A stretch of 18,695 nt of DNA from a virus (lineage: Duplodnaviria; Heunggongvirae; Uroviricota; Caudoviricetes). Under the pieces are notes generated by a model. That model was not told the DNA's origin. It searched no databases and saw only the letters and a list, made by a program, of their open reading frames with translations. Where the stretch lies: the IMG/VR virus record IMGVR_UViG_2609459839_000004; one strand, written 5' to 3'. The position numbers were made by a program, and so were the translations under genes. Shown here piece by piece: positions 9,125 through 10,995 of this stretch. How positions within the stretch are numbered: position 1 is the first letter of the stretch; each line of letters opens with the position of its first letter.

Positions 9125-9340
9125 ATGTACCAGATGGAAAAAATCACAACAGGTGTGTCATACACCACGTCAGCGGTGGGAACGGGCTACTGGTTCCTGC
9201 AGTTGCTGGACAGGGTTTCCCCGTCTCAGTGGGCGGCAATAGGCGTGCTGGGGAGTCTGCTGTTTGGGCTGCTGACATATCTGACTAACCTGTATTTCAA
9301 AATCAGAGAGGACCGTCGTAAGGCTGCACGGGGAGAGTAA
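9125..9340 (+). CDS. S: Class II holin, phage-21 S21-type pinholin with dual-start motif
   Basis: [71 protein letters not shown] closely matches S21 as recalled; two TMDs; Met1 and Met4 starts; GGGAGACGGGG SD. Confidence 0.85.
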
Positions 9341-9344
9341 TTCA

Positions 9345-9605
9345 ATGACTCAAAACTATGAACTGATTGTGAAAGGGATCCGCAATTTTGAGAATAAAGT
9401 TACGGTAACTTTAGCGTTACGGGACAAAAAACGCTTTGACGGTGAAATTTTTGACCTGGACATCTCGCTGGACCGTGTTGAAGGTGCCGCGCTGGAGTTT
9501 TATGAGGCATCAGACAGGTCTTCCTGGATGTTGCTGCCGGGTTATGTGAAGGGGACGAGCTGTTGCCAGAAACGCGCCCCTGTTCAGAGGCGCGGTATAC
9601 CATAA
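9345..9605 (+). CDS. Hypothetical protein (86 aa) between holin and endolysin
   Basis: ATG 5 nt after the holin stop with GGAG upstream; no family recognised; S and R are normally adjacent. Confidence 0.4.
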   Translation: MTQNYELIVKGIRNFENKVTVTLALRDKKRFDGEIFDLDISLDRVEGAALEFYEASDRSSWMLLPGYVKGTSCCQKRAPVQRRGIP

Positions 9606-9698
9606 AAATTAACAGTTCTGATAACTCGATTACGGGTTGTTAGCTTTTTGCAGTTGGCTTTCCAGTATCTTTCATTGGTAGCATCCTGATAAATATCC

Positions 9699-10232
9699 AT
9701 GAGCGCAAAAATCAAATACGGCCTGTCAGCTGCTGTTCTGGCGCTGATTGCTGCAGGCGCGTCTGCTCCTCAGATACTTGCCCAGTTTCTGGACGAAAAA
9801 GAGGGTAACCACACAACGGCATACCGCGATGGTTCCGGCATCTGGACCATCTGTCGGGGGGCCACGATGGTGGATGGAAAACCCGTTTTTCCCGGTATGA
9901 AACTGTCGAAGGAAAAATGCGACCAGGTCAACGCCATTGAGCGTGATAAGGCGCTGGCATGGGTGGAGAAAAACATCAAAGTGCCATTGAGCGAACCCCA
10001 GAAAGCGGGGATCGCGTCATTCTGTCCGTACAACATTGGTCCCGGTAAGTGTTTCCCGTCGACGTTTTATAAACGAATTAATGCAGGTGATCGCAGGGGA
10101 GCGTGTGAGGCGATTCGCTGGTGGATTAAGGACGGTGGCAGAGACTGCCGTATTCGTTCAAACAACTGCTACGGTCAGGTATCCCGTCGTGACCAGGAGA
10201 GCGCGCTGGCGTGCTGGGGTATCTACAGATAA
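9699..10232 (+). CDS. R: SAR endolysin (T4-lysozyme-type, GH24), phage-21 R21-like
   Basis: N-terminal Gly/Ala-rich weakly hydrophobic SAR segment GLSAAVLALIAAGASAP; catalytic E...D...T triad context EGNHTTAYRDGSGIWTICRG as in R21. Confidence 0.85.
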   Translation: MSAKIKYGLSAAVLALIAAGASAPQILAQFLDEKEGNHTTAYRDGSGIWTICRGATMVDGKPVFPGMKLSKEKCDQVNAIERDKALAWVEKNIKVPLSEPQKAGIASFCPYNIGPGKCFPSTFYKRINAGDRRGACEAIRWWIKDGGRDCRIRSNNCYGQVSRRDQESALACWGIYR

Positions 10233-10391
10233 GCAGAATATTTTGCTGAAAAATAAGGCATGGCCACGCGGGCGGATAACATGAAATCCTGCGAACTGGC
10301 GAAACGTAAGTGAATAAAAGTAAAAACCCCGTTTGTTGGCACCAAGCGGGGTTTTGTGTTTCCTGACTCCGGAAAAGTCAAAGGAGAAAGT

Positions 10392-10529
10392 GTGTTTGAT
10401 TTTAGCAAACTGATTCGGGAGATTCGAGTGATGGCTGAAAAATTATCCACCTGGAAGTTCATTCTTATCTGGCTGGTGTTTGTGATTATGGCCTCCGGTT
10501 ATTTCATCGGTCAGATACGCTGGTGGTGA
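10392..10529 (+). CDS. Small single-TM ORF (45 codons, GTG start) between endolysin and Rz
   Basis: AAGGAG at 10381-10386 five nt before GTG 10392; encodes [20 protein letters not shown]; stop 1 nt before the Rz ATG. Below the ORF-track size cutoff. Confidence 0.3.
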
Positions 10530-10530
10530 A

Positions 10531-10995
10531 ATGAACCGCGTACTGTGCGTGGTCATCATTGCCCTGCTGGTGGCCTGTGGTGCGCTTAGTCTGGGGCTGA
10601 ATCATTACCGTGATAACGCCATTACCTACAAAGCCCAGCGCGACAAAAATGTCAGAGAACTGAAGCTGGCGAACGCGGCAATTACTGACATGCAGATGCG
10701 TCAGCGTGATGTTGCTGCGCTCGATGCAAAATACACGAAGGAGTTAGCTGATGCGAAAGCTGAAAATGATGCTCTGCGTGATGATGTTGCCGCTGGTCGT
10801 CGTCGGTTGCACATCAAAGCAGTCTGTCAGTCAGAGCGTGAAGCCACCACCGCCTCCGGCGTGGATAATGCAGCCTCCCCCCGACTGGCAGACACCGCTG
10901 AACGGAATTATTTCACCCTCAGAGCGCGACTGATAATAATGCAAAAACAACTTGAAGGGGCACAGCTATACATTCGAGAGCAATGCCTCAGATAA
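10531..10995 (+). CDS. Rz: Rz i-spanin (inner-membrane spanin subunit)
   Basis: Near-identical to lambda Rz as recalled ([78 protein letters not shown]); N-terminal TMD. Confidence 0.9.
10751..10933 (+). CDS. Rz1: Rz1 o-spanin lipoprotein, embedded in the +1 frame of Rz
   Basis: [20 protein letters not shown] lipobox signal then proline-rich [30 protein letters not shown], matching lambda Rz1. Confidence 0.85.

Follow-up and report, generated by a model that had tools for sequence, protein, structure and literature searches.

Is a lysis cassette whose genes resemble those of several different phages a distinctive recombinant, or is it a familiar module that only appears composite when it is compared with the best-known systems? 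This question is raised by positions 9125-10995 of an 18,695-nucleotide stretch of DNA from a virus of the Caudoviricetes (IMG/VR record IMGVR_UViG_2609459839_000004), which at its full length is called the window below. An earlier note had described the region as a mosaic cassette in which a phage-21-type pinholin and a signal-anchor-release (SAR) endolysin are joined to the lambda-type spanins Rz and Rz1, and had taken extra sequence at two places in the cassette as a mark of recombination at gene boundaries. In our assessment, that description is borne out in part, and the region is very likely a lysis module from the late operon of a lambdoid prophage of E. coli, of the H-19B/933W/K-12 Qin type. 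The cassette is real and mosaic, and its type is not new, having already been described for H-19B, 933W, Qin and approximately 99% of Shiga toxin (Stx) phages. Beyond correct annotation, the importance of the locus is slight.

Gene content of the cassette

The calls and coordinates originally given for S, R, Rz and Rz1 are correct, as judged from the list of open reading frames (ORFs) and from strong Pfam matches for all four genes. The features of the cassette, all on the forward strand, are as follows.

9057-9085 (+): terminator-like hairpin and T-run just 5' of S (fold prediction)
9125-9340 (+): S, predicted class II pinholin, 71 aa (PF04971 match)
9345-9605 (+): ydfR (DUF1327), predicted pseudogene, 86-aa ORF with a frameshift
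9699-10232 (+): R, lysozyme-family endolysin with a predicted SAR anchor, 177 aa (PF00959 match)
10323-10355 (+): terminator-like hairpin 3' of R (fold prediction)
10392-10529 (+): orf45, protein of phrog_6632 with a single transmembrane domain (TMD), 45 aa, GTG start
10531-10995 (+): Rz, inner-membrane spanin subunit, 154 aa (PF03245 match)
10751-10933 (+, +1 frame within Rz): Rz1, outer-membrane lipoprotein spanin subunit, 60 aa (PF06085 match)

Two spacers lie between the lysis genes, at 9341-9698 (358 bp) and 10233-10530 (298 bp). The match of S to PF04971 ("P21 holin S") has an E-value of 9e-33 and a score of 112 bits against a cut-off of 26, which places the protein in the S21 family, and R is recognized as a phage lysozyme (PF00959) at 2e-24. 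Rz matches PF03245 at 6e-51 and phrog_13 at 2e-73, whereas the match of Rz1 is to PF06085 (5e-18). PHROGs assignments agree with the Pfam calls for the cassette genes, and none of S, R, orf45, Rz and Rz1 is truncated. NCBIfam left S, YdfR, orf45, Rz and Rz1 unnamed and gave only a sub-threshold match of R to a gene-transfer-agent endolysin, and an Rfam search gave no match inside the cassette. The functional reading as a pinholin, a SAR endolysin and an embedded two-component spanin holds, as a function predicted from protein families and sequence features.

Comparison with known lysis modules

The cassette was compared with fetched references for phage 21 (OL657228), lambda, 933W (NC_000924), the long-known Stx1 phage H-19B (AF034975.3), a Stx2a phage and the K-12 prophages Qin and DLP12. 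H-19B and the Stx phage Stx2_EH2201 have the same order of S, a gap containing a ydfR-like ORF, R, a 297-bp spacer with orf45, and Rz. Their spacer is 95% identical in nucleotides to the one here, their orf45 is 98% identical in amino acids, and the membrane segment of Rz is 100% identical in nucleotides. The H-19B and Stx phage versions differ in that they carry another allele of ydfR (63% nucleotide identity), diverge in the middle of Rz (80-83%) and encode a longer Rz protein (164-190 aa).

The resemblance to 933W is strongest in the first two lysis genes. Seventy of 71 residues of S (98.6%) and 164 of 177 residues of R (92.7%) are shared with this phage, and both cassettes have extra DNA between R and Rz. 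However, 933W lacks ydfR in its S-R interval, has ant between R and Rz in place of the hairpin and orf45, and encodes Rz and Rz1 proteins that are only 74% and 70% identical to those here. In Qin, the order essQ-ydfR-rrrQ matches the order in the window; the 5' part of ydfR and the 5' part of R are 90% and 91% identical in nucleotides, and the whole of R is 90% identical in amino acids. Differences are that essQ begins with M-K-S-M and is 79% identical, that ydfR overlaps rrrQ without a spacer, and that rzpQ/rzoQ belong to an unrelated spanin family (19-21% identity to Rz and Rz1 here).

The two phages named in the original description are less useful as parents. The S protein of phage 21 belongs to the same family (PF04971), has 79% amino acid identity (56/71) and shows the same M-x-x-M spacing. 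R21 shares with R a fold family at the level of PDB matches, a SAR-type N-terminus and the numbering of the catalytic residues E35, D44 and T50, but the two proteins are only 30% identical, and R here has eight cysteines. The middle of Rz is 98% identical in nucleotides to that of phage 21, and Rz1 is identical at 58 of 60 residues. Conversely, the genes of phage 21 overlap without inserted modules, the N-terminal extension of S lacks a Lys here, and the TMD and the 3' end of Rz differ. Lambda has the same +1-frame embedding of Rz1 in Rz, and C99, C152, E150, R59, the lipobox and the proline-rich region are common to both systems. The TMD of lambda Rz (residues 2-23) is unrelated, and Rz here carries V102E (C29S in Rz1), seven further substitutions (positions 126, 132, 136, 144, 146, 149 and 153) and a C-terminus that is one residue longer. 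The S and R genes of lambda bear no relation to those of the cassette.

These comparisons bear directly on whether the cassette is a distinctive recombinant that arose by fusion, at gene boundaries, of S and R from phage 21 with Rz and Rz1 from lambda, the two insertions being marks of the joints. Some evidence would fit such an origin, including the membership of S in the S21 Pfam family, the 99% identity of positions 10600-10905 in Rz to lambda, and the extra DNA in the S-R and R-Rz gaps. Even so, R has only 30% identity to R21 and S only 79% identity to S21; their 933W counterparts are far closer, at 93-99%. Furthermore, the Rz and Rz1 proteins of phage 21 are themselves 97.4% and 98.3% identical to those of lambda. 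A combination of phage-21 S and R with lambda Rz therefore describes phage 21 itself, and the junction proposed earlier is not a new one. Qin, H-19B and many Stx phages carry the two supposed insertions as conserved modules, and hundreds of E. coli genomes have the arrangement seen here. The breakpoints that can be mapped lie inside R and Rz. Taken together, these findings make the distinctive-recombinant explanation extremely improbable, and they favor an H-19B/933W/Qin-type module that is widely distributed.

Distribution and mosaic structure

The distribution of the cassette was evaluated among 5,426 complete E. coli genomes, and a 2.1-kb region is covered over at least 80% of its length in 658 of them. 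Prophages of E275a, 042, SCU-125 and many others align with this region collinearly at 98.9-99.2% identity. The S and R proteins are the same as in E275a, and a single substitution, D126N, separates the Rz proteins. A search of 50,697 phage records gave no single collinear phage parent. It also gave no copy of the hybrid Rz, as no record exceeds 83-87% identity over most of the length of Rz. Collinearity with a single known element is thus seen for the resident prophages of E275a, 042 and SCU-125 and not for any isolated phage record. Identity with a known isolated phage was considered and rejected; the best record, vB_EcoS-783R2, covers 81% of the region at 90.6% in three pieces, compared with approximately 99% for the resident prophages.

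The mosaic character claimed for the cassette was borne out. A map was built from per-segment BLAST, gene-level alignment and maximum chi-squared tests with 1000 permutations. An identity plot from a global MAFFT alignment with phage 21, lambda and DLP12 was set aside in favor of these methods because it aligned divergent stretches wrongly and missed the similarity to S21. The segments are as follows.

9000-9507: 100% identical to the induced prophage vB_EcoS-783R2
R up to about 9929: Qin-like, 91% nucleotide identity versus 80-83% to Stx phages
R from about 9969: Stx-phage-like, 93-96% versus 85% to Qin
10233-10596 (spacer, orf45 and Rz membrane segment): 91-100% to H-19B and Stx2_EH2201
10531-10596 (Rz membrane segment): 100% to H-19B and Stx2_EH2201
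10600-10905: lambda 99%, phage 21 98%, DLP12 97%, Stx phages 80-84%
10906-10995: 76-85% to lambda, 21, DLP12, 933W, H-19B, Stx2_EH2201 and 783R2

Two transitions were located by the chi-squared tests. At the breakpoint in R (9929-9969), Qin-like informative sites fall from 28 of 36 on the left to 3 of 47 on the right, and at the breakpoint in Rz (10590-10623), Stx-like informative sites fall from 28 of 28 to 2 of 54; for neither was an equally high value reached in 1000 permutations. A further breakpoint in Rz lies near 10906. The mapped breakpoints in R and Rz are intragenic, in conflict with the proposal that recombination occurred at gene boundaries. This map illustrates that recombination of lambdoid lysis modules cuts inside R and Rz, and not only at gene borders.

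The cassette is very likely a patchwork produced by homologous recombination among lambdoid prophages. In it, S resembles its 933W counterpart, and the 5' parts of ydfR and R resemble those of Qin. The 3' part of R is closest in type to 933W, H-19B and Stx2_EH2201, whereas the membrane segment of Rz, orf45 and the spacer before it are of the H-19B/Stx2_EH2201 type. The coiled-coil region of Rz, together with Rz1, is lambda/21-like, and the 3' end of Rz has another source. This patchwork is an established and widespread combination of alleles in E. coli, and not a new event in this sequence.

The holin and its two start codons

At the nucleotide level, S is 97% identical to the 933W gene and 72% identical to that of phage 21. 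The protein has two TMDs, the first of which is rich in Gly, Ala, Ser and Thr and is SAR-like, whereas the second retains the face formed by G40, S44 and G48 when aligned to S21. These features predict that S acts as a pinholin, a type of protein that makes small heptameric holes through which the membrane is depolarized and the endolysin does not pass, and the holins of 933W and H-19B have been classed as P21-family pinholins (PMC10462455).

An S21-type holin with a dual start that yields an antiholin and a holin had been proposed. The family assignment stands, with 933W S as the closest relative, and so do the two in-frame ATG codons at 9125 and 9134, which give the N-terminal sequence M-Y-Q-M and products of 71 and 68 aa. 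The antiholin part of the claim is weaker. The antiholin character of S21-71 has been ascribed to an extra N-terminal positive charge (PMC9636201), and because M-Y-Q has no basic residue, unlike S21-71, the case for an antiholin/holin pair here is weak. Among the 120 closest representatives of the S21 family, the M-x-x-M spacing is nearly universal. Some of these proteins have charged extensions (20 with MYRM, 18 with MKSM and six with MLRM), and others have uncharged or acidic ones (33 with MYQM, four with MDQM and three with MNQM). In H-19B, S has ATA where the first ATG would be.

There is thus a large natural clade of S21-family holins without the basic residue that is thought to define the antiholin isoform. 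One can speculate, although we consider it doubtful, that the 933W-type pinholin clade (MYQM, MDQM, MNQM or the single start of H-19B) has lost charge-based dual-start antiholin control, so that the timing of lysis is set in some other way. If so, a candidate for such a role may be the orf45 membrane protein (phrog_6632), whose gene abuts Rz both here and in phage SPN3UB.

The region immediately upstream of S also resembles known systems. The Shine-Dalgarno sequence of S lies within a stem-loop, as it does in phage 21. The hairpin at 9057-9085 has a 12-pair stem followed by TTTTTTT, with a predicted RNA folding energy of -17 kcal/mol (z = -4.1), and S of 933W is likewise preceded by a similar hairpin. 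A 97-aa ORF beginning at the ATG at 9047 was tried as an alternative start for S and was rejected; it crosses the upstream terminator hairpin and is not conserved.

The endolysin and its predicted N-terminal anchor

The description of R as a phage-21-type SAR endolysin holds for its layout and not for its sequence. In a search of PDB sequences, residues 11-174 of R align to the structure of R21 (3HDE) at 1.5e-16, and RrrD (4ZPU) is also matched; with the Pfam match, these hits settle the fold of R. The global amino acid identity is 92.7% to 933W R and 90.4% to Qin RrrQ, compared with 30.2% to both R21 and RrrD. What is shared with R21 is the arrangement of the N-terminus and of the catalytic residues. 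The N-terminus (MSAKIKYGLSAAVLALIAAGASAPQIL) has K4 and K6 followed by a weakly hydrophobic stretch rich in Gly, Ala and Ser. The best 19-residue segment has a Kyte-Doolittle hydrophobicity of 1.78 with 53% Gly, Ala and Ser, values that can be compared with 2.11 and 58% for R21 and with a hydrophobicity of 0.01 for lambda R. The triad, in which E35 is followed after eight residues by D44 and after five more by T50, comes right after the hydrophobic segment and is numbered as in R21.

This same N-terminus could instead be an ordinary cleavable Sec signal peptide. R would then be secreted into the periplasm in soluble form, and its release would not depend on S. The sequence MSAKIKYGLSAAVLALIAAGASA does have the n-h-c appearance of a signal peptide and includes an A-S-A motif. 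However, this ASA is the sole AXA site of R, and it is followed at +1 by a proline, which blocks cleavage by signal peptidase I. In addition, the catalytic Glu at residue 35 adjoins the hydrophobic segment as it does in R21, and an active lysozyme that is secreted constitutively would kill the cell before assembly. The hydrophobic core at residues 7-24 (YGLSAAVLALIAAGASAP) is identical in 933W R, which behaves as a SAR endolysin, and which has been listed and used experimentally as such by the Young laboratory (PMC9239132). A cleavable signal peptide is therefore quite improbable. By analogy with 933W R, and given the proline after the ASA motif, R is predicted to retain an uncleaved anchor and to be released and activated on depolarization of the membrane. 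The pinholin/SAR reading of S and R, as derived from their sequences, is well supported and has already been published for such genes; according to one survey, 99% of Stx phages carry a predicted SAR endolysin and pinholin (PMC8136144).

The sequences between the lysis genes

Both of the gaps that had been regarded as interruptions contain resident modules, and neither serves as a mark of recombination. The S-R gap holds ydfR, in an S-ydfR-R layout that is the same as that of K-12 Qin; ydfR lies between the holin and endolysin genes in many Stx phages as well. The ORF starts 4 nucleotides past the stop codon of S, which is the distance at which R starts in 933W. It matches PF07041 (DUF1327) at 1e-28, although only over positions 1-60 of the 93 in the model. 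In alignment with E275a, whose intact YdfR is 104 aa in length, 16 bp (GCAGCAGCCAGAAGGA) are absent after about position 9507. A different, overlapping 16-bp deletion is present a few bases away in the ydfR gene of SCU-125. The RefSeq annotation marks the copies of SCU-125 and 042 as pseudogenes, and the latter as frameshifted. This pattern suggests either repeated independent loss of ydfR or a hotspot for slippage at short GCA/CAG repeats.

The R-Rz gap is a known module consisting of a hairpin and orf45, as found in H-19B, and its sequence is 94-95% identical in nucleotides to those of H-19B and dozens of Stx phages. The hairpin at 10323-10355 has 13 pairs followed by a T-rich tail (-18.9 kcal/mol, z = -3.3). 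The GTG start of orf45 at 10392 is preceded by AGGAG 5 nucleotides upstream, and its stop codon lies 1 nucleotide before the ATG of Rz. All 45 residues of the product are matched by phrog_6632 (residues 1-45 of 45, 1e-29). The protein has 98% amino acid identity to its homologues in H-19B and many Stx phages and 50-67% to those in Salmonella and Pseudomonas phages, and length and a clear motif (KL..WKFxLIWLVF...GQIRWW) are retained down to 50% identity.

The orf45 gene also directly precedes Rz in H-19B, in Stx phages and in the Salmonella phage SPN3UB. Its homologues in Salmonella phage SEN34 and Pseudomonas phage YMC11/02/R656, by comparison, are found among tail and baseplate genes, which weakens the possibility that orf45 is a lysis-specific gene. 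Judging from these contexts, orf45 looks like a mobile gene for a small membrane protein rather than a dedicated lysis gene.

The spanins

The spanins had been considered almost identical to those of lambda. This is true of positions 10600-10905 (99% nucleotide identity) and of Rz1, which matches lambda at 57 of 60 residues (95%) and phage 21 at 58 of 60 (96.7%). It does not extend to Rz as a whole, whose TMD is unrelated and whose 3' end diverges; the global amino acid identity of Rz is 82.5% to lambda and 81% to phage 21. Rz has a hydrophobic segment at residues 4-23, and Rz1 lies wholly inside Rz at an offset of 220 (1 modulo 3). Characteristic residues are retained in both proteins, namely the lipobox VVGC (Cys20), the proline-rich stretch and R59 in Rz1, and C99, C152 and E150 in Rz.

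A single T-to-A change at 10838 alters both reading frames, producing C29S in Rz1 and V102E in Rz. E275a, 042 and SCU-125 are 100% identical to the cassette across the block that includes this position. In lambda, either Rz C152 or Rz1 C29 alone suffices for function (PMC5295617), and phage SfI has a natural Rz1 without C29 (PMC6139136), a feature that was confirmed in its sequence. The homotypic disulfide that lambda needs, at Rz C152 or Rz1 C29, could be provided in this cassette by Rz C152. The C29S form of Rz1 is therefore a widespread natural allele that fits with lambda genetics, in which the disulfide at Rz C152 is enough. Outside the TMD, the residues V102, D126, E132, T136, K146 and N149, at which Rz is unlike lambda, are not mentioned in the available part of the lambda spanin mutant study.

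Proposed mechanism of lysis

The gene content, family membership, mosaic map and population frequency of the cassette were observed directly, and each mechanistic step is inferred from the characterized systems of phage 21, 933W and lambda. Transcription would be carried out by a Q-modified, antiterminated polymerase that reads through the small hairpins. The S pinholin would accumulate in the inner membrane until, at a set time, small holes form and the proton motive force collapses. In the meantime, R would be exported by the Sec system and kept inactive by its N-terminal SAR anchor. On depolarization, R would leave the bilayer, refold and cleave the murein, after which the Rz/Rz1 complex that spans the periplasm would disrupt the outer membrane.

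The state of the prophage

Several observations weigh against the interpretation of the cassette as a lysis module that is complete and in use. Some of these lie within the cassette. On the evidence of the alignment, ydfR is a pseudogene, frameshifted by its 16-bp deletion. The longer form of S carries an M-Y-Q extension that contains neither Lys nor Arg, and so it departs from a charge-based dual start. No recognizable Shine-Dalgarno sequence is seen 5' of the start of R (9670-9698), unlike in 933W, where R uses GGAGAG at the end of S; translation of R in cassettes that contain ydfR may be weak or may proceed by another mechanism. Moreover, the 3' end of Rz (10906-10995) has no characterized close relative among the fetched phage references.

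Other observations concern the remainder of the prophage. Compared with the E275a prophage, its closest relative at 99.6-100% identity, the window lacks three blocks of approximately 4.9, 5.7 and 6.6 kb, each of which is cleanly deleted. The deletion junctions, each with flanks that are 100.0% identical to E275a, are as follows.

12807: first deletion junction
16441: second deletion junction
18161: third deletion junction

These deletions remove the rest of the small terminase gene, the large terminase and portal genes and part of the protease gene, as well as the tail tube and tape measure genes, most of gpJ, lom and the tail fibre gene. They indicate either a defective prophage or a sequence that has been spliced or assembled. 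Because the downstream morphogenesis genes carry three large deletions relative to E275a, the prophage is probably defective and unable to make particles, and phage release by means of the cassette may never occur.

A more extreme possibility is that the cassette is a decaying remnant that no longer works, and that its genes are intact only for lack of time. Such decay could account for the frameshift in ydfR, for which SCU-125 offers a parallel at the same spot, for the deletions in the terminase, portal and tail region, and for the start of R without a clear ribosome-binding site. It is less easily reconciled with the full length of S, R, orf45, Rz and Rz1, or with S and R proteins that are the same as those of the fuller E275a prophage and an Rz that differs only by D126N. 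The position of R downstream of ydfR and uncoupled from S is also found in H-19B and Stx2_EH2201, which have the same layout. A weak additional argument is that the Rz differences from lambda outside the TMD are absent from the part of the lambda mutant study noted above. On balance, decay of this kind is unlikely, and the cassette is better regarded as a lysis module of the H-19B/933W/Qin type that is located in a probably defective prophage.

Neighboring features of the window

The DNA upstream of the cassette carries several other features, which are listed by position.

4248-5827: ORFs downstream of the Q antiterminator gene that by position correspond to the Ser/Thr protein kinase and PP2C phosphatase genes of E275a
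near 6020: site at which IS2 is inserted in E275a; the window has no IS2 there
7494-8007: three tRNA genes, with a CAT anticodon (tRNA-Ile in the annotation of relatives), Arg-TCG and Arg-TCT
8033-8368 (-): iraM-like anti-adapter gene, on the opposite strand
8613-8974 (+): truncated DUF1737 ORF and a small ORF, between the tRNA genes and S

The small RNA STnc100 (Rfam RF02076, 132 bits) is located 3' of the three tRNA genes. A tRNA island downstream of Q is usual in Stx-type prophages, and the interval between the tRNA genes and S is where Stx phages carry stx and nanS-p.

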